IMG/VR virus record: IMGVR_UViG_3300045738_001741
Location: 1-54,386 of that record
Reading direction: 5' to 3' (one strand)
Length of the DNA: 54,386 bases
Origin: a virus
Lineage: Duplodnaviria > Caudoviricetes
Each line of letters opens with the position of its first letter. Position 1 is the first letter of the stretch. A program made the position numbers and the translations under genes. Under the pieces are notes generated by a model, which ran no database searches, had not been told where the DNA came from, and saw only the letters and a program-made list of their open reading frames with translations. Below are positions 5,790-43,236 of the stretch, piece by piece.

Positions 5790-7067
5790 TCAATCGGATT
5801 TTGTCTCCTCTGGGCTATACGTCGAATCATCAAACTCAGATTCTAAGCCAAGCTCAGCAATGATGTCGGTCTGCTTAATGGCATCCACGTTCTCATCCTT
5901 GACAGCTTCTACAGCCATCTTTTCTTCAGATAGATCAATGGCCCCTCGCCATGTATCCAGATACTCCTTGACCTCTCTTTCATCCTTGGCATCTATCAAG
6001 GATGGGCATCTTAGAAGTATCTCCTCTGGCATATCAGCTTCTAAAGCGGCCTTAAACTTTACAGTCTCGCCATTCGCCCAAGGCTCTTGAACTGTCCAGT
6101 TACTTGGACCCACGATCCTTTCGGCATATCGCAGACTAGTCAATAATCCTCCAAGTGGGTTGATACCCTTATCGAAGAACAGGTCAACTTTTTCAACCTT
6201 TCCAAAAGGCTTCCAGCTACGATTCTTCTTATTTTCAAAATTCAACTGTACTCCACAAGGAACTTTGAACTTGTCCTTAATGAATCCAGATGCACTGGTG
6301 CGAATTCTGCATGAAGCATAGAACGGCAATGCCTTACCGCCACCACCTGTAGTTTCTGGGCTTCCCCATAACACACCAATTTTCTGTCGTGTTTGGTTGA
6401 TGACATACAAACTAGCATTGGCATCATTGAGCAGAGGGTTAAGACGACGTAGCATGTCACCAGCCGCTCTAGCACGCTCGCCGGGCCGTTCATTACCGCC
6501 TGCGGCCTTGATTGCTTCCTTCGTCGCATTCTCTGGAAGCTCAGCGACTTTCCACTCTCGCTCTGTTGGGACTACAGAGATCGAGTCCCATACGAATAGC
6601 TTGGGAATTTCAATGCCGTAATGCTCATTGATCTTCTCGACCGCTACTCTAATCTTTCTCTCGCATTCCTCGATAGAAATTGGCTCATAAGATATAAGCT
6701 TTTCAATATCTACATGGCCTGCGTTCTTGGCAAAATCTGGATTGCCAGCACGTTCGCAGTCTAGATAAACAGCAATGCCACCCATCCTTTGAACGGCACC
6801 CAGAACACAGTTGCCAAGCAACGACTTGGCAGATGCAGGTGGACCATATACTTCTGTGATCTGTCCACCAGGAAGTCCACCACCAATATACTTTCCTGAC
6901 AGGATTCTATTCAGAGCCAAGTTGCCGGTATCAATGAAATACCTCGACTGACCCATGTCGCACATCATTTGTCCGCCCGTATCGGCAGCTAGTCCTTTGA
7001 GGAAGTCTTGGTCACCAACCTTTTTATTTCGAGTGGTAGTTTTGGGTTCTGCTTTCTTACGTGGCAT
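5790..7067 (-). CDS. recA: RecA/UvsX-like recombinase
   Basis: DTGNLALN, GGLPGGQITEVYGPPASAKS, WDS, INQTRQKIG, TTGGGGKALPFYASCRI. Confidence 0.92.
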   Translation of the reverse strand: MPRKKAEPKTTTRNKKVGDQDFLKGLAADTGGQMMCDMGQSRYFIDTGNLALNRILSGKYIGGGLPGGQITEVYGPPASAKSLLGNCVLGAVQRMGGIAVYLDCERAGNPDFAKNAGHVDIEKLISYEPISIEECERKIRVAVEKINEHYGIEIPKLFVWDSISVVPTEREWKVAELPENATKEAIKAAGGNERPGERARAAGDMLRRLNPLLNDANASLYVINQTRQKIGVLWGSPETTGGGGKALPFYASCRIRTSASGFIKDKFKVPCGVQLNFENKKNRSWKPFGKVEKVDLFFDKGINPLGGLLTSLRYAERIVGPSNWTVQEPWANGETVKFKAALEADMPEEILLRCPSLIDAKDEREVKEYLDTWRGAIDLSEEKMAVEAVKDENVDAIKQTDIIAELGLESEFDDSTYSPEETKSD

Positions 7068-9819: not shown

Positions 9820-10443
9820 CTATTTTCGAACCATCCCTGTGCCGTATCTAGTTTCTAAAATAACTGGCTTTCTATTCCTTACCTTGCAAAAGGTAGAAAA
9901 CGCTTCTGCGGCTGGCTCATGTGAAACAACATATTCCATCACGATGGTTCCACCCAAGCTCATTTGAGGCCATAATATTTCTAGATAAGAAAGAAGTGTA
10001 TCGTAATCTAACTGCTCATTCACAAAAGCAATATCCCACTCGAATTTAGAAAACCTATTTTCAAAGTTTACATCAGAAACATTCCCATAATATAAATCAA
10101 TATCACCTTTATAGTATCTTTTTATATTATTTAGAGCTATGCGTGATGAATAGAAGTTATCTTGGTCAGCCTGCTGAAATCCTAAAAAATGTTTAATAGT
10201 CTTGCAGCTATTAAAGAAACAAGAAGCAAGGAGGCCCAATCTAAAGCCAAGCTGCACACACGTTTTTGGATAAACATGTTTTCCAAGATAGTAATAGAAA
10301 GGAACATACCTCGGATCAACGTAAGCACTTGTCTTTCTAGATGCCTCGTTTATAAAGCTAAGTGAATCCAAGAGTATTCTTGAACTCACTATCTCCATAC
10401 TCAATTCATCCCCCACCTGGGCAGCAAGTTCTTGTAATTCCAA
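9820..10443 (-). CDS. class I SAM-dependent methyltransferase-like (Methyltransf_24-like), degenerate
   Basis: CVQLGFRLG motif I-like, WDIAFVN, WPQMSLGGTIVME, TRYGTG; TTG start. Confidence 0.6.
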   Translation of the reverse strand: MELQELAAQVGDELSMEIVSSRILLDSLSFINEASRKTSAYVDPRYVPFYYYLGKHVYPKTCVQLGFRLGLLASCFFNSCKTIKHFLGFQQADQDNFYSSRIALNNIKRYYKGDIDLYYGNVSDVNFENRFSKFEWDIAFVNEQLDYDTLLSYLEILWPQMSLGGTIVMEYVVSHEPAAEAFSTFCKVRNRKPVILETRYGTGMVRK

Positions 10444-13088: not shown

Positions 13089-14765
13089 TTATAGTTCTGG
13101 GGCTGGCCCCTTGACTTCTAAATCGTCATCGTCATCGTCATTTTCTTGAGAGAAATTTGCCTTACGAACCTCTAGTGCCTGCAAGTGGTCATCGGCATTA
13201 CCCACAATGTCAGCAACCTGTTTCTCTTCCTTAGATAACTCACGTCCAATCTGCCCGGTACTGTGCCCCTCAAGATTCGATTGAAACTCTTTAAGTATAC
13301 GGTTGTAAGTGTCCTTAGAAATCTGTCGCATACAAAGTGTAATACGATTGATTTCTATATGGAAAGTATATTTCCCCTCACCATTTCTATTCTTAGAAAC
13401 ATGAACCCTCGCCAACCGAATAGGACGACAGTCATTCTCGTCTTTAAATTGATTGATTGTCCACAAAGCATCAAGAGGCTTCACCTGATCGAAAGAATCT
13501 CCAATGTTGTCATCATCGATTACATCGCCCTGCTTCACCAATTCTTTAGCACTACGATTAGCCTGCATAGCAGTGAGAACGCACACTTGTTCGGATACTG
13601 CCCAGCCACGTAGATCACGAACTATTCGATAGCGAGACTCATAGGTTTTCATTCCAGAAAAGTCTTTCATCTCACCAATATAATCCACGATAATCAAATC
13701 GGGAACAAACCCTTGCAACTTCAGTTGATTGTGATAAGCCAACAAATCATTTGGCGACATCGTACCACCTGGAAACTGTTTGATGACCAAGAGTCTCTTA
13801 TCTTCTTTGTCCTCTACATAATCACCCAAAGCTTTTATTACCAGTTCTGGATGGTTCTTCTCCATTAGCGTATTAATGCCCGGTAGATCATCTAGCCCCT
13901 CTGGATTGGCCAACTGACAATCAAATCTATCGGCAGTTAAATCTTGAGAGTTCTCTAACGTGACGTAGAGAACCTTTTTACCATTGTTTAGATTCGATAT
14001 TGCCGCTCGAACCAATGCCAGAGATTTACCAGTACCCGACAACCCCATCCAAGCGGCAATCTCTCCTCGGCTTAATCCGCCACCAATCATGTGATCGTCA
14101 ATGGCCTTGAAACCACTCGTGAATATATCCCCCTCTTCGGCAGATTTTTTCTTGCGAGCATAGCGTTCTTCTACGCTTTCAAAATAGTTCTCACCCATAT
14201 CAATATCACGATCCACCACCAAGGCGTCACGCAACATCCCCTTAATTTTTTCCCAATCTCGACTACCTTTGAACTCCTGAATACAAAGATGAAAGCTAAT
14301 CTTTAATTCGGCTTCCTTAGCGAAATCAGTAATTTTGTCGCTGTAGTATCGGCGAGCCTCCAAGCCGGGGGCATAAAACTGTAGTACGGTGCTGAATTCT
14401 TTAAGATAGTGAACTCGGACATCGGCATCTTTAGTTTTCGTAGCATCCCGAATTTCCTGCCCCATCTGGATGCGAGTGGGCAAACTCCCATACTCTTCGT
14501 AATGTTTGAAAAGTATGCGGCAAATTCTTTGATGAACATCGTTGGTAAAATAGGTGTGCTTGACCAACGCCATGTTCTGCCTACAAAACGATTCATCCTG
14601 CAAGAATAACCCCAATATTTCCCGTTGGAATTCTTCATCCCATTGATAGGCATCATCAGAGACAGCATCAGGATCACCTGAGATCAAATTCTCAAGCTCC
14701 TGCTGTTCCTCTAATGTCAACTCTTCCTCGGTAGGCGTAACGTCCACTTCTTCTTGCTGCATCAA
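13089..14765 (-). CDS. replicative DnaB/gp41-like helicase
   Basis: TSGF..ID...GGGL, GLSGTGKS, YVTLE, IIVDY, TAMQANR, KNRNG. Confidence 0.92.
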   Translation of the reverse strand: MMQQEEVDVTPTEEELTLEEQQELENLISGDPDAVSDDAYQWDEEFQREILGLFLQDESFCRQNMALVKHTYFTNDVHQRICRILFKHYEEYGSLPTRIQMGQEIRDATKTKDADVRVHYLKEFSTVLQFYAPGLEARRYYSDKITDFAKEAELKISFHLCIQEFKGSRDWEKIKGMLRDALVVDRDIDMGENYFESVEERYARKKKSAEEGDIFTSGFKAIDDHMIGGGLSRGEIAAWMGLSGTGKSLALVRAAISNLNNGKKVLYVTLENSQDLTADRFDCQLANPEGLDDLPGINTLMEKNHPELVIKALGDYVEDKEDKRLLVIKQFPGGTMSPNDLLAYHNQLKLQGFVPDLIIVDYIGEMKDFSGMKTYESRYRIVRDLRGWAVSEQVCVLTAMQANRSAKELVKQGDVIDDDNIGDSFDQVKPLDALWTINQFKDENDCRPIRLARVHVSKNRNGEGKYTFHIEINRITLCMRQISKDTYNRILKEFQSNLEGHSTGQIGRELSKEEKQVADIVGNADDHLQALEVRKANFSQENDDDDDDLEVKGPAPEL

Positions 14766-15253
14766 TTCCCCTCCGGCATATCTAACGTCACTGCTATCGT
14801 ATGACTTTTACTTCCCCAACTTGGACCCTCGTCGGCAATAAGCCAGCCGGTCATGCCTGCCTTCATCATAGGAACGATGACCCTTAAATTTGGCATAAGA
14901 AGTGTAGAGTTTTTAATTTTGCACCAAGATGCCCAAAATACTTTTTCTATCTCACCGGGACTAGGCTTAGGTTCTTTATACCATACAGGAATTTTTACAC
15001 AATATACAAATCCCCAACTCCCAACAATCGTGCCCATGTGTTCACAACAATCTACATGAGGACACATGCCAGCTTCTTCCTGTAGCTCTCTGATTGCAGC
15101 TTGGATCGGGGATTCGCCCGGCTCTACCTTGCCGCCAACCAAGTTGTATTTTCCTTTTTGCCAAGCTGGCTTCATTTTTTCTACAATCAATATATCGTTA
15201 CTATTGTTACGCTCTCCCACTAATCGAGCATAAACCAACACGTATTCTTGCAT
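14762..15253 (-). CDS. NUDIX hydrolase
   Basis: Nudix box GGKVEPGESPIQAAIRELQEEAG. Confidence 0.92.
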   Translation of the reverse strand: MQEYVLVYARLVGERNNSNDILIVEKMKPAWQKGKYNLVGGKVEPGESPIQAAIRELQEEAGMCPHVDCCEHMGTIVGSWGFVYCVKIPVWYKEPKPSPGEIEKVFWASWCKIKNSTLLMPNLRVIVPMMKAGMTGWLIADEGPSWGSKSHTIAVTLDMPEGN

Positions 15254-15282
15254 CTAATCATTCCTGATATGAAATGAAAAAA

Positions 15283-15345
15283 ATGTCCGCCGCACTTCGC
15301 AAGTCATACTTGGGCTTCATACCTTGTTTGGCTATGCGGCGGACA
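15283..15345. repeat. inverted repeat with long loop
   Basis: atgtccgccgca ... tgcggcggacat. Confidence 0.7.
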
Positions 15346-15347
15346 TA

Positions 15348-15381
15348 TAAAAAACGGCAGTGGCAAAAAAGCCACTGCCGT
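15348..15381 (-). terminator. intrinsic terminator downstream of sigma-like gene
   Basis: acggcagtggc-aaaaaa-gccactgccgt perfect 11-bp stem with T-run on the minus strand. Confidence 0.75.
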
Positions 15382-15394
15382 CTAGTCTAACAAA

Positions 15395-15955
15395 TCACCC
15401 TGTGACAAGGTAGTCATATTCACTCAAACTAACCTGCCCACTACGAATGACTTTCTCTCTCGTAATTTTCTTGCCCATAGATTTCTGGGCATTCCATGTA
15501 ATAGACTTACAGTAAGTACAGAATTTAGCATCAATTCGCAATGCTGCGGTTTTTGATGGTCGTTCTGACTTAGGCACCAACAGTCTAGACAATTTATCTA
15601 GCAATTTCTCCTGATGCGGACCAAACTTTTGTCTATTGGCCCCGTGTCTAGTTTTGTTTTTCCACAGTTCACATAGTTCTCCAACAAGGCACTTCATAAA
15701 CCGGTCTTTTGCATATTTTGTACAAAGTTCAAGATTGGCTACAACGTAGACTTGCCTCTTATAGTAAGAGCCTGCCCTTATCAGAGCTATTCGTAGTTCT
15801 TGTGCAATATCTGTTTGTTCGTCGGTATGGTTGTTTCTAGAGTTCTTTTTAATTAGTTGCCATGCTGCATATTCACAAAGGTCTCCGAACTTCTCATCGA
15901 GAAGCATGTATTCCTCTGTTGTTACTGGAAATGCACTGAATATCGATTTCATCAC
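15395..15955 (-). CDS. sigma70 region-2-like protein (candidate phage sigma factor)
   Basis: DIAQELRIALIRA resembles region 2.2; AKFCTYCKSITWNA resembles region 2.3/2.4; no region 4. Confidence 0.5.
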   Translation of the reverse strand: MMKSIFSAFPVTTEEYMLLDEKFGDLCEYAAWQLIKKNSRNNHTDEQTDIAQELRIALIRAGSYYKRQVYVVANLELCTKYAKDRFMKCLVGELCELWKNKTRHGANRQKFGPHQEKLLDKLSRLLVPKSERPSKTAALRIDAKFCTYCKSITWNAQKSMGKKITREKVIRSGQVSLSEYDYLVTG

Positions 15956-15962
15956 GTCCTTT

Positions 15963-17234
15963 CTAAGCTGCCACCGGCTTAAGTCGATTCAAATTAAGAC
16001 CGGTATGACATGAAACTTTCAATTGAAGTCTTGGGTATAAATCACTCTTTGCTTCCAATACATTCTTCGCCAAATTGTACACCTTTTGACAATCGTTAGG
16101 ATTCACATAAAGAATATAACCATCATGGATGTGAAATCCTATTTTAGACTCCTTCAAAGCGGCGTGTAGTTGAACCAACTTATCCAAACAAATTAGAGAC
16201 GCTGGAGATTGAACAACAAAGTTCCTAATTCGATGGTCAACTGTTTCAAACTTACGTCGTTTACCAAATACATCCACTGCAAAACCATCATCGCCAATTG
16301 ATTGCTTGCTTATCCAATCCATCGCCACGGAATACTTGGAATAGATTTTATCTACAAACTTCTTTGCGGTTTCAATGGGTAGGTTCCCCACTTTTGCAAC
16401 AGACTCAACTCCCTGACCGAAAACGATAGGGAGAAACATTGATTTGCATCTTTTTCTAAAATCATCACTGGCGTCGAGAGTGGTAAGGTCTTTCCAAATT
16501 GCATTGTAAAGATCATCCCCCGACTCCAAAATTCTACCCAGCACGGGATCGCCGGATAACCACTGTAGTACCGATACTTCCATATGTCTAAAATCGAAAT
16601 ACATGAAAATATCATCGAAACTAGACGGTCGTAAAACCTCCCGCTCAGCTTCGGACAGAGAATGCGGATTAAAGCTATCTTGAGATATTTTAGAACACTT
16701 CATTCGGCCATTAACCTGTCCTGCGACCTCGTAAAATGACCAAAGCTTTTTCCTTAGCTCTGTGTTGATGACGCCATTGCACTCCATCTGTGGGACTACC
16801 CTGGCAATCAAGGGAAGGTATATAGAACGGTAAAGTCGTTTTATCTTTGGCCAAGATGAAGTTTCCACGATACTAGAAAGCCGGGTTTGGGCAGCACGAA
16901 AGCTCTGGGGCATCTTCTCATTAATCCCCAAATATGCCTCCAATACCCGCAAATCTAACAAGCTGCTTTCTATATCGTAAACTATCCCCGTGTATTTCAG
17001 CAAATGCGAAAATAGGTTTTTTATGTTCCACCCAATCACAACCGTAGAGGGATTGTTTATATAGAAATCTATCTCCCCGACCTGCTCCGCAAGCTGGCGT
17101 CGAGTGGTGGCCAATTCCATCTCCAGACGTTTATTTCCTCCGATGAGGATTAGCTTTTTTATAGAAGTACCCTCTACGCCTACAAAAACGTTTTGCTCAG
17201 TCATCTCTTCCAGTGCTTCTGCTAAGTCGCTCAT
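15963..17234 (-). CDS. family A DNA polymerase, minimised (thumb largely deleted, vestigial exonuclease)
   Basis: NGRM, motif A DFRHME, motif B RKRCKSMFLPIVFG, FGKRR, NFVVQS, motif C HIHDG; 423 aa. Confidence 0.85.
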   Translation of the reverse strand: MSDLAEALEEMTEQNVFVGVEGTSIKKLILIGGNKRLEMELATTRRQLAEQVGEIDFYINNPSTVVIGWNIKNLFSHLLKYTGIVYDIESSLLDLRVLEAYLGINEKMPQSFRAAQTRLSSIVETSSWPKIKRLYRSIYLPLIARVVPQMECNGVINTELRKKLWSFYEVAGQVNGRMKCSKISQDSFNPHSLSEAEREVLRPSSFDDIFMYFDFRHMEVSVLQWLSGDPVLGRILESGDDLYNAIWKDLTTLDASDDFRKRCKSMFLPIVFGQGVESVAKVGNLPIETAKKFVDKIYSKYSVAMDWISKQSIGDDGFAVDVFGKRRKFETVDHRIRNFVVQSPASLICLDKLVQLHAALKESKIGFHIHDGYILYVNPNDCQKVYNLAKNVLEAKSDLYPRLQLKVSCHTGLNLNRLKPVAA

Positions 17235-17289
17235 AACCCTAACTATAGCAAAAAAAACTTATTAAAACAAGATAGAAAAAATGATATTA

Positions 17290-17800
17290 TAAGGGCAGTA
17301 TGAGCGCATACCCTGCACCAATTTTGTACTGGTTCAAAGTGTTCAATCAATATCAATAATTAGTTAATTGATAGAGATAGAGCAATTTGCAGTGCAAAAG
17401 TGTTATGTATCCTTGAGTTTGTACTCCAAGGCATACAATGTACGATATTGAAATCCAGTATAGAGAAAATAGCTTCTTCCACTATTTGATTCTCCATTTT
17501 ATGAGTGTCCTAACCAAAGCAAAGGAAAAGATTAATCTTCTTTCAAAAATTACTTTTCACCCCTAAAGTTCCACAACATCTTTGGAATGTTGCATCAACT
17601 TCACCAGATAATGGGGATGGTTGCAAATACCTTGGCATACCTCCACTCTTTGAGTGATGTAGACGTGCAGTTACGTCCGATTAACGACCAGGGTTACGTC
17701 GTACTCAGGTTTTCGACATCAGGCTGCGGAAAGGGATTTCATCGTTCCATTCCTGATGGGGCCAATTGATGCCCAGCATGAATTTGTTTTTTATAGGTTT
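17290..17800 (-). ncRNA. putative large structured RNA or origin element
   Basis: ORF-poor, many local hairpins and long-range pairings, downstream of a strong minus-strand promoter. Confidence 0.5.
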
Positions 17801-17805
17801 GCTCT

Positions 17806-17864
17806 AGTATAGAAGGTTCGAAAACAAAGTCAACCTTGACTTACAATTTTCTTTTCATTATTAT
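17806..17864. promoter_or_regulatory. back-to-back divergent sigma70-like promoters
   Basis: minus: TTGACT-N16-TATACT (17833-17806); plus: TTGACT-N17-TATTAT (17836-17864); the -35 boxes form agtcaa-cc-ttgact. Confidence 0.7.
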
Positions 17865-17987
17865 TGGAAAACATAAAATTCATAGAAAGGTGTTTGGAAA
17901 TGAGTGAAAAATTAAGTAACATTAAAGAACCTAATCAACTAAAAGATTGTGCGGCATTACATCACGATGATTAAAGGAAATTTGTAA

Positions 17988-18473
17988 ATGAGAATAGACC
18001 ACATAGCATACGGGGTCAAAAACATAAATGAAACGGTTGAGTTTTTTCAAGAAGCTTTTGGTTACAAGATAGCTGACGAATTTCAAATTAGTTTCGGTGA
18101 CAATTCTACTGCTAAATGTATTACATTAAACCCTCCAGAAAAAATTAGGTGTATGCCATATAAATTTGTTCATGTTGGAGTTTGGGATTTACATTTGGCA
18201 CCTGAAATTTATGTGATAGATGGTAGTTCTGATTCCGTAGTGGGCAAATGGGTGGCTGAGAGAAATGGTATAGGTGGAATACATCATGTGGCTTATCAGG
18301 TAACATCTGTTAAAGATACTATGGCAGAATGGAAAGAAAAAGGGTATGCTGAATTTACCACTGATGATCCTCTAATGCATCCTGGTATAAGTCGATGTTA
18401 TACCAAGCCATGTAAATTAACTGGGATTGTCTATGAATTTATTGAACGAGATAAAAATTTACATTTGAGATAA
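17988..18473 (+). CDS. VOC (glyoxalase/epimerase-like) family metalloenzyme
   Basis: RIDHIAYGV, GGIHHVAYQV, YEFIER. Confidence 0.85.
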   Translation: MRIDHIAYGVKNINETVEFFQEAFGYKIADEFQISFGDNSTAKCITLNPPEKIRCMPYKFVHVGVWDLHLAPEIYVIDGSSDSVVGKWVAERNGIGGIHHVAYQVTSVKDTMAEWKEKGYAEFTTDDPLMHPGISRCYTKPCKLTGIVYEFIERDKNLHLR

Positions 18474-18498: not shown

Positions 18499-19197
18499 AT
18501 GGACCCTCTTGAACTGATTTTGAAATATCAAATGGATGAATTGCAGGCGAAAGCCTACAAAATTTCATTGATGTGGATCGATCTTTCTAGAAAAGAATTT
18601 CCAAACTATCAACATGTTAGATTTAGAAAAACTGGCGATCCTAGGAAATCGCTTCTTTTCAAACATTGTTACAAACTTGCTCGTGAAACAAATGGACTAC
18701 TGCCGGATAAAGAATATCGCTTATATATTTTGTCGCAATTGCACATTTTGAGGGGTATTACAGATGGCGAGATTCACGCTCTGATTGATCCGCAATGTTT
18801 GCATGGTGAAAAAGCGTGGAGAAGATGGCAAGTTTGGAAAAAAAGGTATGATGCCCATCGTAGGCAAACCCAAACAGTAGAAAGTCTAGAAGTAGATCAG
18901 TTTTCTCGTACAAAAGCGGAACTCGAAAAGACAAAGTTGTTTTTAGATTCGCATGAGTGCCTACTTTTTAAGCAGTACAAAGAAAAGGTTTTAGATCGAA
19001 CAATTATTAAATGGGTTACATTTGGCTGGGTTAGCCCAATTTATGCAATTCTAAGTCCTTGGATGAAAAAAGTCATCGGGGATATTGAGGAAAATTACTC
19101 CTTCGATCTATCGATCTATAAACCAGGGATTACTGAAGAGGTCGAAGAGGAGTTTGCTAGATTATTCGAACATGAATATAGGTTAGAAAATGAATGA
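18499..19197 (+). CDS. hypothetical protein
   Basis: 232 aa ORF. Confidence 0.75.
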   Translation: MDPLELILKYQMDELQAKAYKISLMWIDLSRKEFPNYQHVRFRKTGDPRKSLLFKHCYKLARETNGLLPDKEYRLYILSQLHILRGITDGEIHALIDPQCLHGEKAWRRWQVWKKRYDAHRRQTQTVESLEVDQFSRTKAELEKTKLFLDSHECLLFKQYKEKVLDRTIIKWVTFGWVSPIYAILSPWMKKVIGDIEENYSFDLSIYKPGITEEVEEEFARLFEHEYRLENE

Positions 19198-30798: not shown

Positions 30799-30806
30799 TT
30801 CTAGAG

Positions 30807-30888
30807 TGCCCTTGAGAGGACTCGAACCTCCACGCCTCTCGGCACAGGTTCCTAAAACCTGCGTGTCTGCCAATTCCACCACAAGGGC
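30807..30888 (-). tRNA. tRNA-Leu(TAG)
   Basis: GCCCTTG/CAAGGGC acceptor stem, D-loop TGGCAGA, anticodon loop TTTAGGA, long variable arm, GGTTCGAGTCC T-arm; CCA not encoded. Confidence 0.95.
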
Positions 30889-40947: not shown

Positions 40948-43236
40948 ATGTCGATTCGTGCATTACAAGATTATACGTACTATTCCAAGTACGCACGATA
41001 CAATGAAAGTGAAAAGAGAAGAGAGACGTGGAATGAAGCATGTGATAGAGTTAAAGAAATGCATTTGAGGAGATATCCTCAAGTAAAAGATGAAATAGAA
41101 TGGGCGTTTAATCTTTCGAAAGACGTAAGAGTATTAGGGTCACAACGAGCTTTACAGTTTGGTGGCACGCCTATCGAAAAGAAGAATGCAAGAATCTACA
41201 ATTGCACTGTTTCTTTTTGCGATAGAATTCGATTTTTTCAAGAGTGCTTTTGGCTATTACTGTGTGGATGTGGCACGGGATTCAGTGTCCAGAATCATCA
41301 CATCGCTAAATTGCCAGATTTTTATCCTGATATGGTTAAGGCTTTTAAGACACCGCCTCTTGGTGATGTCCCCGTCGCAGAACATGCCAATCTCAAGAGA
41401 AGAATTTTTACAATTCCAGATACTATTGAGGGATGGGCAGATGCGTTGGGAGTTCTAATGGCCACCTATATGCCTAATCCAGAATTTCCAGATTGGGAAG
41501 GGTGCTTTGTAGAGTTTGATTTTTCTGCTATTCGTCCGAAAGGGTCATATTTATCTTCTGGTGTTGGCAAAGCTCCAGGATCAGGGCCTCTTCGAGAAGC
41601 TCTGCGTATTATTCAGAACATGTTAAATGAAAGAATAATTCAGGGCTTTGATCGCTTGCGGACTATTGATGCTTACGACATCGTTATGCACGCAAGTGAT
41701 GCGGTGTTATCTGGTGGTGTGCGAAGGTCTGCCACTATCTGTATTTTTTCACCAGATGATGAGGATATGGTTCTTGCTAAAACAGGAAATTGGTTTGTAG
41801 AAAATCCTCAACGTGGTCGTTCTAACAATTCTGCTCTTCTTTTGCGGGATAAAACCTCAAAAGAACAGTTTGTCAAATTAATGAGTGCTGTTAAGCAATT
41901 TGGAGAACCAGGATTTTATTGGAGTGATAGTACCGAGCAATTGCCTAATCCATGTGTTGAAATCGGAATGTGGCCGGTAGACGAAGTGACAGGTGAGTCC
42001 GGTTGGCAGTTTTGCAATCTTTGTGAAATCAATGGCAAGAAAATCAGATGTAAAGAAGATTTTGCCATAGCCGCTAGAGCCGCAGCAATTATTGGGACGC
42101 TACAAGCCGGATATTCTAGCTTTGACTACTTAGGACCAGTTACAGAGGCTATTGTGCGACGTGAGGCTCTTCTGGGAGTGAGCATGACAGGGATGCAGGA
42201 CAGCCCAGATATTACTTTTAACCCTTCTATTCAACGACAAATGGCCAAACTTGTTGTAGAAACAAATGAATGGATGGCAAAGAAAATTGGCATCAATCCT
42301 GCGGCACGTTGCACATGTATTAAACCCGCAGGAACCACAAGTTGCATGTTAGGAAGCGCTAGTGGTGTTCATCCACATCATGCTCGACGATACTTTCGCA
42401 GAGTACAAGCAAATGCTTTAGAGTCTGTTTATCAGTATTTTAAAGAGCATAATCCTGTTGCTATAGAATCAAGTGTTTATAGAGAAACTGATGGTGTAAT
42501 TACATTTTGTATAGAAGTGCCCGATGGTGCAAAAACTAAGAATGATATAGCAGCTATTGAGCTTCTAAAATGCGTTAAAACAACTTATCAGAATTGGGTA
42601 GAGTATGGAAAGCAAAAGGATTTGTGTACGCAAGAATGGCTTACCCATAACGTTTCAAATACTATTAATGTCCGACCAGATGAGTGGGACAAAGTAACTG
42701 ATTTCATCTATAAAAATCGCAATTTCTTTTCAGGTATCGCATTGTTGCCACAATCTGGTGATTTAGATTATCCTCAAGCCCCAATGTTAAATGTTCACAC
42801 ACCAAGAGAGATTTTTCAAAGGTATGGTGATGGTTCATTAATGGCGAGTGGGTTGATTGTTGATGGACTCCATGCGTTCGATGGTAATCTTTGGAATGCG
42901 TGTAATGCTGTATTAGGGCTTGGTGACCCCATAGAACTTCCAGAAGAACCGACTTCAAGCAATATTGATGATTTTAGGGCCTATGAATCAGAAGTTCAAA
43001 AGTGCAAAAAACAACTTGATTGGATTCGTCGAGTTGAACAATTTGCAGAAAGATATTGTGATAAAGACGTTCGTAAATGTTCTTATCTTCTAAAAGAAGT
43101 GAACAATTGGAAGCTTTGGCTTGATCTAAAACGTGAATACGTGGATGTAGATTATACCCAATTGATAGAAGAGGAGGATTTTACCAAGCCAATGGATACT
43201 ATTGCTTGCGCAGGCGGTGCGTGTGAAATAATGTAA
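40948..43236 (+). CDS. nrdJ: ribonucleotide reductase, class II (monomeric NrdJ)-like
   Basis: YNC, GGVRRSA, NPCVEI, CNLCEI, KPAGTTS, YPQAP, C-terminal CAGGAC; no C-terminal YY and no nrdB in window; class assignment less certain than RNR identity. Confidence 0.8.
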   Translation: MSIRALQDYTYYSKYARYNESEKRRETWNEACDRVKEMHLRRYPQVKDEIEWAFNLSKDVRVLGSQRALQFGGTPIEKKNARIYNCTVSFCDRIRFFQECFWLLLCGCGTGFSVQNHHIAKLPDFYPDMVKAFKTPPLGDVPVAEHANLKRRIFTIPDTIEGWADALGVLMATYMPNPEFPDWEGCFVEFDFSAIRPKGSYLSSGVGKAPGSGPLREALRIIQNMLNERIIQGFDRLRTIDAYDIVMHASDAVLSGGVRRSATICIFSPDDEDMVLAKTGNWFVENPQRGRSNNSALLLRDKTSKEQFVKLMSAVKQFGEPGFYWSDSTEQLPNPCVEIGMWPVDEVTGESGWQFCNLCEINGKKIRCKEDFAIAARAAAIIGTLQAGYSSFDYLGPVTEAIVRREALLGVSMTGMQDSPDITFNPSIQRQMAKLVVETNEWMAKKIGINPAARCTCIKPAGTTSCMLGSASGVHPHHARRYFRRVQANALESVYQYFKEHNPVAIESSVYRETDGVITFCIEVPDGAKTKNDIAAIELLKCVKTTYQNWVEYGKQKDLCTQEWLTHNVSNTINVRPDEWDKVTDFIYKNRNFFSGIALLPQSGDLDYPQAPMLNVHTPREIFQRYGDGSLMASGLIVDGLHAFDGNLWNACNAVLGLGDPIELPEEPTSSNIDDFRAYESEVQKCKKQLDWIRRVEQFAERYCDKDVRKCSYLLKEVNNWKLWLDLKREYVDVDYTQLIEEEDFTKPMDTIACAGGACEIM

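Follow-up and report, generated by a model that had tools for sequence, protein, structure and literature searches.

A structured RNA upstream of a short family A DNA polymerase gene in phages, tentatively read as an origin-associated transcript

In ColE1, RNA II is transcribed from a promoter several hundred nucleotides (nt) upstream of the origin; its folded 5′ part matters, it runs in the leading-strand direction, and a family A DNA polymerase extends it. Here we compare this and other described systems with a locus in IMG/VR record IMGVR_UViG_3300045738_001741, a Caudoviricetes contig that we analyzed over its entire 54,386 bp (the window) and that lacks terminal repeats. At this locus, comparative analysis places a structured RNA on the minus strand ahead of a gene for a short family A polymerase (PolA). 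The phage RNA resembles RNA II in its upstream promoter, its folded 5′ part, and its direction of transcription, and in that a family A polymerase would extend it. It differs in having no sequence or Rfam similarity to RNA II and no evident antisense partner of the RNA I kind, and in belonging to a phage of ~500 kb with its own polymerase; a hybrid with DNA and processing by RNase H are hypothetical here.

Other phage systems share parts of this layout. At T4 oriF and oriG and at the T7 primary origin, a promoter is followed by an easily unwound AT-rich region; our locus has a promoter-like site and an AT-rich stretch and heads a co-oriented arm of genes, and like T4, the phage encodes UvsX-, gp32-, and gp46-like proteins. 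Those origins have no large conserved RNA fold, whereas at this locus the AT-rich part comes after a covarying structure of ~250 nt. The Rfam families GOLLD, ROOL, OLE, and raiA are likewise sizeable, phage-associated, multihelix covarying folds of orphan function, but the phage RNA matches no Rfam 15 model and has a fixed context beside PolA. The operator of T4 and RB69 gp43 is also a structured RNA on the mRNA strand ahead of a phage DNA polymerase gene; it is a single small hairpin over the ribosome-binding site of a family B polymerase gene, whereas the fold described here ends ~270 nt short of the start codon. According to the abstract of a review (PMC6380287), eukaryotic viruses have replication-associated transcripts that regulate priming or recruit replication factors; the likeness to these is conceptual only, since the viruses and the RNAs are unrelated.

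The RNA lies in the widest gap of the contig that is poor in open reading frames (ORFs), 753 nt from 17235 to 17987; the remaining gaps are at most 308 nt. PolA (minus strand) flanks it on one side and a plus-strand gene starting at 17988 on the other, and the ORFs inside it are all short. The initial annotation had pointed to ~500 nt without a credible ORF, and this description holds. Judged by covariation, the gap contains a structured RNA core of ~275 nt on the minus strand, with the following elements:

17503-17777, minus strand: RNA core, ~275 nt, GC 0.44, delimited by covariation and model matches
17774-17770/17763-17759, minus strand: helix H1 of the core
17758-17752/17723-17717, minus strand: helix H2, enclosing H3
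17747-17743/17733-17729, minus strand: helix H3, with an AAAUCCC loop
Between H2 and helix 6 in the order of helices, minus strand: joiner AAAACCUGA, a core element
17706-17703/17655-17652, minus strand: helix 6, enclosing hairpins 17702-17698/17688-17684 and 17678-17673/17666-17661
17648-17644/17507-17503, minus strand: outer helix, covarying in three lineages of the window's own RNA family (family A of the conserved gaps)
17637-17628/17521-17512, minus strand: H7, a long-range helix
17616-17613/17563-17560, minus strand, inside H7: helix CCCC/GGGG, with hairpins 17592-17587/17579-17574 and 17558-17553/17530-17525

On the window alone the finding was undecided, because the folding energy was unimpressive and differed little between the minus strand (z = -2.39) and the plus strand (z = -2.58), promoter-like sites occurred at chance level, and Rfam gave no family. 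Against shuffled controls, then, the folding energy is modestly low without a strand difference, and on its own it is weak support for an RNA. The evidence that carries the finding comes from related phages. The L002 lineage (identical copies plus the 95%-identical L199), whose PolA is 56% identical to that of the window, aligns along the whole leader (nhmmer E value, 6.6e-23), with blocks of identity broken by compensatory exchanges. RNAalifold predicted 46 pairs for the window and L002, of which 10 were compensatory and none was broken. A covariance model, R1, then retrieved a third lineage at full length (L216, from the same phage as L282; PolA, 41% identical) with an E value of 9.6e-08.

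As a control, we recounted pairing after shifting the partners ("slid"). A MAFFT alignment of three sequences, not fitted to a model, had double changes at 13 of 60 pairs, and 96.1% of the cells were paired, compared with 36 to 52% when slid. With the third lineage included, a model-fitted alignment of four sequences had double changes at 29 of 60 pairs (96.1% paired versus 36 to 49% slid); model-fitted alignments favor the modeled structure, and the paired fractions are to be read in that light. Among the pairs, 19 cells were G-U and none was A-C; the RNA is therefore on the minus strand, in the sense of PolA. Helix 6 is complementary yet different in each lineage (GAGU/ACUC in the window, CUCU/AGAG in L002, and UAGCU/AGCUA in L282), as is the outer helix (GAGUG/CACUC, GUAAAC/GUUUAC, and GUCUUUAA/UUAAAGAC, respectively). 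The loops AAAUCCC, GUrrCCCUG, AACCAUCCCC, and UUAGGAC are invariant. Strain variants were called from four metagenome runs, with 40 of 125 variants listed and 22 of those listed being noncoding. The listed variants in the core (17531, 17545, 17581, 17585, and 17604, all in its 3′ half) fall in predicted loops or unpaired stretches, and none of the listed variants lies in 17605-17799.

The initial annotation had proposed a set of stems for this region, and these fared unevenly. Compensatory changes support catcagg/cctgatg, acgac/gtcgt, gacgt/acgtc, and the position of the caacat/atgttg hairpin. The long-range pairing gcatcaa/ttgatgc is not conserved, and for the local hairpin cactc/gagtg a better account is given by two helices of longer range (helix 6 and the outer helix), which covary in three lineages. 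The stems placed further left sit in the less constrained AT-rich part. An RNAalifold proposal that paired the invariant ACCU and AGGU was superseded by helix 6 and the outer helix, both of which were recognized because the alignment from a model of a second subfamily (R3, below) pointed to them.

We detected the same RNA more widely upstream of polymerase genes. PolA homologs of ~430 amino acids (aa) numbered 100 at an E value of ≤0.001, and loci were taken from the best 80 of 207 viral-contig relatives and the best 80 of 112 metagenome-contig relatives, giving 110 unique loci. Of these, 99 were searched with models and 11 were excluded as having little or no upstream sequence or as near-duplicates; the upstream regions of the closest PolA relatives (98%, 59%, and 58% identity) lay outside the RNA comparison. 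Upstream gaps of ≥560 nt occurred in about 30 of the 110 loci, and several groups of gaps were conserved among themselves. One such group, the second subfamily (L036, L051, L253, and L256, later joined by L052 and L055), has a covarying fold with compensatory changes at 21 of 86 pairs. Its elements follow the order seen in the window: a nested hairpin whose loop is C rich, the joiner AAAACC(U)GA, a closing helix around two hairpins, AGGU(R)NGCC, a long-range helix, UUAGGA/UUUGG, and an outer helix.

R3, built from this second group, matched 25 of the 99 loci at an E value of ≤0.0011 (6 of them its training set). It also matched the window at full length (17498-17771) with 13.0 bits and an E value of 0.00017, in a search of 701 nt with filters off; the match was not reached under default filters. 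In the opposite direction R2, a further model of family A, matched L055 with 13.3 bits (E value, 0.0038; 41.8 kb searched) and L051 with 7 bits. All these covariance-model E values are rough, as the calibration was short. The window core itself scored 256 bits with R1 and 246 bits with R2 (17509-17777). An nhmmer search of family A sequences with the profile of the second subfamily gave no match, so it is covariance models and shared helices, and not primary sequence, that link the subfamilies. A model-fitted alignment of 23 sequences had double changes at 60 of 67 pairs, with 93.0% of the cells paired compared with 36 to 42% slid. All full-length R2 and R3 matches were on the PolA strand, with cores ~190 to 410 nt upstream of the gene. 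Covariation upstream of homologous PolA genes, which the initial annotation had named as a way to check its proposal, is thus found at each depth of comparison (13 of 60, 29 of 60, and 60 of 67 pairs).

In total, the RNA was present in 28 of the 99 loci and in the window and was not detected in 71 of the 99. We treat the window RNA as a divergent member of one class of ~230 to 275 nt upstream of short family A polymerase genes, a class that appears about as well supported as comparative analysis permits. The claim of an RNA-polymerase module thereby holds as far as a structured RNA on the PolA strand linked to the short PolA in these loci is concerned, but it does not extend to a general partnership. 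A partner or template role for the RNA with thumbless polymerases in general is not supported: in 71 of the loci, many with upstream gaps of <100 nt, it was not detected.

The class is previously undescribed and absent from Rfam 15. A search of the whole window, which the initial annotation had also suggested, returned only a tRNA-Leu; the region 17100-18050 at an E value of ≤10 gave five matches, none reaching its gathering threshold (the best had 21.1 bits against a threshold of 49), and six class loci at an E value of ≤1 gave none. A scan for tRNA and transfer-messenger RNA (tmRNA) genes found only the tRNA-Leu elsewhere in the window, a blastn search of GenBank phages with the gap gave no match, and we found no description of this RNA in the literature. 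A motif search in other PolA upstream regions returned nothing. In viral contigs, a loose DNA pattern matched at least 117 stretches, among which only L097 and L143 (on the contigs of L002 and L013) also had a second motif of the RNA; the rest were not checked with models. A stricter pattern matched 10 stretches, and the 4 new candidates besides L282 (L279, L280, L285, and L286) failed R1. No bacterial or archaeal copy was found among the 80 of 108 pattern stretches in genome contigs tried with R2 (best E value, 0.39). In five whole records, G001 to G003 searched with R2 and G005 and G007 with R3, the RNA occurs once each, adjoining PolA; the copy number covers these five records, since the whole-record R3 search missed known weaker matches in G004, G006, and G008.

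Further conserved gaps lie beside PolA. For gap families B, D, and E, the alignments were crude and the alifold results ambiguous, and several B and E members were later matched by R3. In family D (L028, L034, L232, and L236), an ORF-poor gap of ~780 nt upstream of PolA is 87 to 98% identical among members and has no match to R1, R2, or R3. In the L010/L011 lineage (436-kb contig), 2.8 kb separate PolA from a homolog of a 232-aa protein that adjoins the RNA in related lineages; this interval (L010, 709-3485) holds short overlapping ORFs on both strands, and R1, R2, and R3 gave no match in L010.

The gene downstream of the RNA and the putative promoter element at its start are as follows:

15963-17234, minus strand: PolA, 423 aa; N-domain vestigial and exonuclease-like, thumb apparently reduced
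17242-17247, minus strand: -10-like hexamer TATAGT, 7 nt before the PolA ATG

PolA matches Pfam DNA_pol_A (PF00476) with an E value of 2.7e-21, over profile positions 101-378 only. Residues D214, R260, K264, H370, and D371 are invariant in 27 PolA sequences, and on our reading of the sequence they belong to motifs A, B, and C, with both catalytic aspartates among them. On the same reading, PolA seems to have Leu268 at the motif B position that is Phe or Tyr in Klenow and Taq; it lies within F267-L268-P269, which is also invariant in the 27 sequences. The structure model has a predicted local distance difference test (pLDDT) score of 90.9, and Foldseek aligned it to Pol nu, Bst, KlenTaq, and the apicoplast polymerase (targets of 520 to 640 residues) with query-normalized template modeling (TM) scores of 0.70 to 0.79; by this modeling, PolA is a family A polymerase with a high-confidence Klenow-like fold. 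Residues 172-413 align to 269-527 of the KlenTaq chain, with ~97 fewer residues N-terminal of that point, and the thumb region of the model contains two helices only (112-123 and 128-153). Lengths and secondary structure are consistent with a thumb that is missing or a stub, about a thumb's worth of residues having been lost N-terminal of motif A. Of the earlier description of a thumbless PolA, the family assignment stands, while the loss of the thumb is read from these lengths and helices. The sole near-full-length relative among GenBank phages is from a 595-kb uncultured phage (38% identity). In one paper (PMC10201439), PolA is divided into 19 clusters, and a supercluster with a "broken thumb" is described; passages of its main text mention no thumbless class of ~430 aa.

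The initial annotation had also noted an apparent promoter of PolA itself. TATAGT is present. All 4 family A sequences have a TANNNT box 6 to 7 nt ahead of the PolA start, and 35 of 111 loci have one within 5 to 8 nt, compared with 11% of background positions. This suggests that PolA has its own promoter and a leaderless or near-leaderless mRNA. Because the conserved -10-like box adjoins the PolA start, a separate transcript for the RNA, as had been proposed, is plausible; on the other side, no intrinsic terminator was predicted on the RNA strand between the core and PolA in the window, L002, or L282.

The sequence that follows the core differs in character:

17235-17502, minus strand: AT-rich stretch, GC 0.32 (versus 0.44 in the core), with local hairpins and the islands UGG...CCAG and UGCGC

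An equivalent stretch follows the core in 25 of 25 sequences, with 188 to 409 nt, GC of 0.23 to 0.46, and no conserved ORF; PolA start calls at some loci are possibly off by tens of nucleotides. It carries 14 of the 22 listed noncoding strain variants (17262-17489). The z score of its minimum free energy (MFE) is -2.1 in the window and -0.1 to +0.5 in L002 and L282, and a stable fold of this part is unsupported. Plus-strand promoter-like sites are present at 17262-17290 and 17333-17360, though the number of such sites is at chance level, and we saw no conserved antisense unit of the RNA I kind over the RNA. In the window, the 3′ edge of the core (17470-17533) is complementary to the PolA start region (17203-17259) over ~58 nearly continuous nt. 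The duplex of 17533-17470 with the PolA start (-25 to +32) has -46.8 kcal/mol, compared with -32.5 ± 2.9 kcal/mol for shuffles, 0 of 30 of which were as good, and the MFE fold of the full window transcript hides the PolA start codon (probability of being unpaired, 0.17). As a feature of the family this pairing was rejected: for L002, 12 of 30 shuffles were as good, and in L199 the best duplex lies elsewhere. The PolA start region pairs locally in the MFE folds of L002, L199, and L282.

Upstream of the core, promoter-like sites stand back to back:

17833-17806, minus strand: promoter-like site TTGACT-N16-TATACT, 10 of 12 consensus matches
17836-17864, plus strand: promoter-like site TTGACT-N17-TATTAT, 10 of 12 matches, back to back with the minus-strand site
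17806-17864, both strands: divergent promoter-like region, whose two -35 boxes form a palindrome (17842-17827)

The minus-strand promoter of the initial annotation is thus present as a site, but promoter-like sites in the region are as numerous as expected by chance (10 versus 9.4 ± 3.1 in shuffles) and neither L002 nor L282 keeps its -10 box. The palindrome of the -35 boxes also occurs in L002. In the window and L002, the RNA core begins ~20 to 25 nt past the inferred start site.

The position of the RNA in the genome was examined through cumulative GC skew, a check that had been proposed for the full genome and that we ran on six contigs. In the window, the skew minimum is at 17 to 18 kb, with the RNA at 17.5 to 17.8 kb (minus strand); the strand switch of gene blocks that the initial annotation saw here falls at 17 to 18 kb as well, coinciding with the minimum. 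In G004 (381 kb, 79% complete), the skew is flat to ~70 kb and then rises steadily to the end (RNA at 70,242, plus strand). G007 (101 kb) has a V-shaped skew with a minimum at kb 47 (RNA at 41,750, minus strand); G005 (189 kb) has its minimum at kb 2 (RNA at 5,933, plus strand); the first 80 kb of G006 are flat to kb 13 and then rise (RNA at 9,898, plus strand); and in G001 (245 kb), the skew falls to ~161 to 166 kb, with an absolute minimum at kb 182 (RNA at 156.6 kb, minus strand). In all six contigs, a skew minimum or inflection lies within ~10 kb of the RNA, whose transcription runs into the adjacent arm. Passages of a study of huge phages (PMC7162821) report bidirectional skew patterns in ~30% and unidirectional ones in ~30%.

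The genes around the RNA and PolA are the following:

17988-18473, plus strand: glyoxalase-like gene (Pfam Glyoxalase_4; E value, 4.7e-10)
18499-19197, plus strand: conserved 232-aa protein, divergent neighbor of the RNA in related lineages
15395-15955, minus strand: ORF186, downstream of PolA in the co-oriented replication block
14762-15253, minus strand: NUDIX gene in the same block
13089-14765, minus strand: DnaB-like helicase in the same block (block 13089-15955)

The glyoxalase-like gene has no counterpart at the same place in L002/L003 and L282, and because it is absent there in two related lineages it appears to be an accessory gene (glyoxalase/bleomycin resistance-like) that was recently inserted between the divergent promoter and the 232-aa gene. 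The 232-aa protein is 70% identical to L003 2126-2815, 46% to L282 6600-7313, and 53% to L010 7-708; it has no match in Pfam or PHROG, an Atlas search gave no usable lead, and we regard its family as a candidate for a protein that acts with the RNA or the origin. With 81% identity to the L003 counterpart, ORF186 is more conserved than PolA itself (56%); it has no match in Pfam or PHROG. Other genes of the window form a T4-like set for replication, recombination, and nucleotide metabolism: helicases, a UvsX-like recombinase, a gp32-like single-stranded DNA-binding protein, an SbcC-like nuclease subunit, and ribonucleotide reductase. The tRNA-Leu (anticodon TAG; about 30806-30888, minus strand) is the sole Rfam or ARAGORN match in the contig. 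Related contigs of 27 to 381 kb are 5 to 79% complete by CheckV, which implies genomes of ~480 to 500 kb, and near-identical sequence occurs in DNA runs from marine, seawater, and hydrothermal-vent metagenomes.

We tentatively favor the view, at somewhat less than an even chance, that the RNA is an origin-associated transcript, either the pre-primer of an R-loop or an activator of the origin. We favor it because a promoter-proximal fold is followed by an AT-rich stretch without a conserved ORF, at a skew inflection and with transcription into the arm, and because the RNA is single copy, PolA likely has a separate promoter, and the phage has a set of T4-like genes for replication and recombination. 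The comparisons show the RNA and where it lies; priming, hybrid formation, and any contact with protein we infer. In this model, the locus would be a replication origin or part of one. Transcription from the divergent promoter region would yield the folded RNA and run on into the AT-rich stretch, where the transcript may stay hybridized to DNA as an R-loop or otherwise open the duplex. The phage polymerase would then extend the 3′ end of the transcript, or an end left by processing, to form the leading strand, and the resulting fork would travel along the long co-oriented gene arm. The conserved fold could set whether and where the hybrid forms, as in ColE1 RNA II, or could recruit replication proteins. 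The earlier suggestion of a primer transcript at an R-loop origin thus gains indirect support from the skew position in six of six contigs, the orientation into the arm, and the AT-rich stretch, with priming itself an extrapolation from these.

Several observations weigh against an origin-associated role. The RNA was not found beside the gene in 71 of 99 related PolA loci, and it could be a passenger of replication-gene synteny, such genes often lying near origins. To our knowledge, no R-loop origin other than that of ColE1 RNA II needs an elaborate RNA fold, T4 oriF and oriG and T7 included. The skew is V-shaped only in G007 and the window; the curves of G004, G001, and G006 stay flat on the opposite side, and the RNA of G005 is too close to the contig end for that side to be seen. 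In G001 and G007, the minimum lies ~5 to 10 kb from the RNA (~25 kb for the absolute minimum of G001). Skew also does not isolate replication from transcription, because gene orientation switches at the same places. The linkage to PolA is partly built in, because the class loci were gathered via PolA; the stricter pattern scan and the five whole records are the checks free of that selection. No RNA run was among the sequencing runs listed as containing the window sequence, and the search for repeats or iterons in the gap gave only short two-copy matches.

Other explanations account for parts of the same evidence. A stand-alone noncoding RNA gene with a structural or regulatory role together with a protein, whose place beside PolA would be an inherited gene order of the replication module, is a possible reading that we consider clearly less probable than an origin transcript. 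It would explain the large multihelix fold with invariant loops, the long and poorly conserved AT-rich stretch that parts the RNA from PolA, the -10-like box at the PolA start, and the single copy per contig, and the neighboring gene order is likewise kept. What it explains less well is that no intrinsic terminator was predicted after the core in the window, L002, and L282, that no partner protein was identified, and that the RNA is always in the PolA sense at ~190 to 410 nt in 25 sequences, whereas the upstream neighbor varies in strand. The upstream position on the same strand, with no predicted terminator in between, would suit a long 5′ leader that acts in cis on the PolA operon mRNA and controls read-through or translation through a ligand or through binding of the polymerase or another protein, as in gp43 autoregulation in T4. 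The start-region duplex (-46.8 kcal/mol) and the buried start codon of the window agree with such a leader, which we hold to be just as doubtful as the noncoding RNA gene. But the start-region pairing is confined to the window (L002, L199, and L282 differ); the fast-evolving AT-rich spacer of ~190 to 410 nt is unlike known riboswitch or operator layouts, the -10-like box by the ATG suggests an internal promoter, and 71 of 99 PolA loci lack such a leader. A conserved expression platform, as in a riboswitch or cis-regulatory leader, was not found: no terminator-like site lies between the core and PolA in the window, L002, or L282, and start-region pairing occurs in the window only.

It is also conceivable that there is no RNA and that the gap holds conserved noncoding DNA (protein-binding sites or cruciforms) or an unrecognized gene for a small protein. 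The palindromic -35 pair and a TGCGC(A)TA motif could be DNA sites, and a short antisense ORF runs over the core in both the window and L002. Compensatory changes with 19 G-U and no A-C cells are strand specific and unexpected for sites in duplex DNA, however, and TGCGCATA as a recurrent promoter motif or DNA site is not enriched in the window (13 matches with at most one mismatch, versus 35.8 expected). The antisense ORF (60 aa, 17587-17769) shares only 13 of 25 residues with its L002 counterpart and is not kept in L282, which has only a 28-aa ORF there, and no ORF is conserved in the AT-rich stretch; both this ORF and one of 45 aa (17360-17497) were rejected as genes. We consider it very improbable that the conservation reflects DNA sites or a small protein. 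In a bolder version of the origin transcript, the thumb-reduced polymerase would have the RNA as its own initiation cofactor, a structured pre-primer that would be recognized by the polymerase, by the 232-aa protein, or by the ORF186 protein, and that would define the origin and supply the grip on primer-template of the missing thumb. This strikes us as unlikely, more so than either the stand-alone gene or the leader, and it is the one form in which the earlier idea of an RNA partner for the polymerase survives.

If the RNA were such a cofactor, it would represent an RNA-specified replication origin in a DNA phage of ~500 kb. The origins and initiation mechanisms of huge phages (~500 kb) are essentially unknown, and the RNA gives a sequence-defined candidate. 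Whatever its function, it is a large structured RNA family outside Rfam 15, with at least 28 loci and the window and with 60 of 67 pairs covarying. The class can be used as a marker of this phage group, and it is suited to structure determination.

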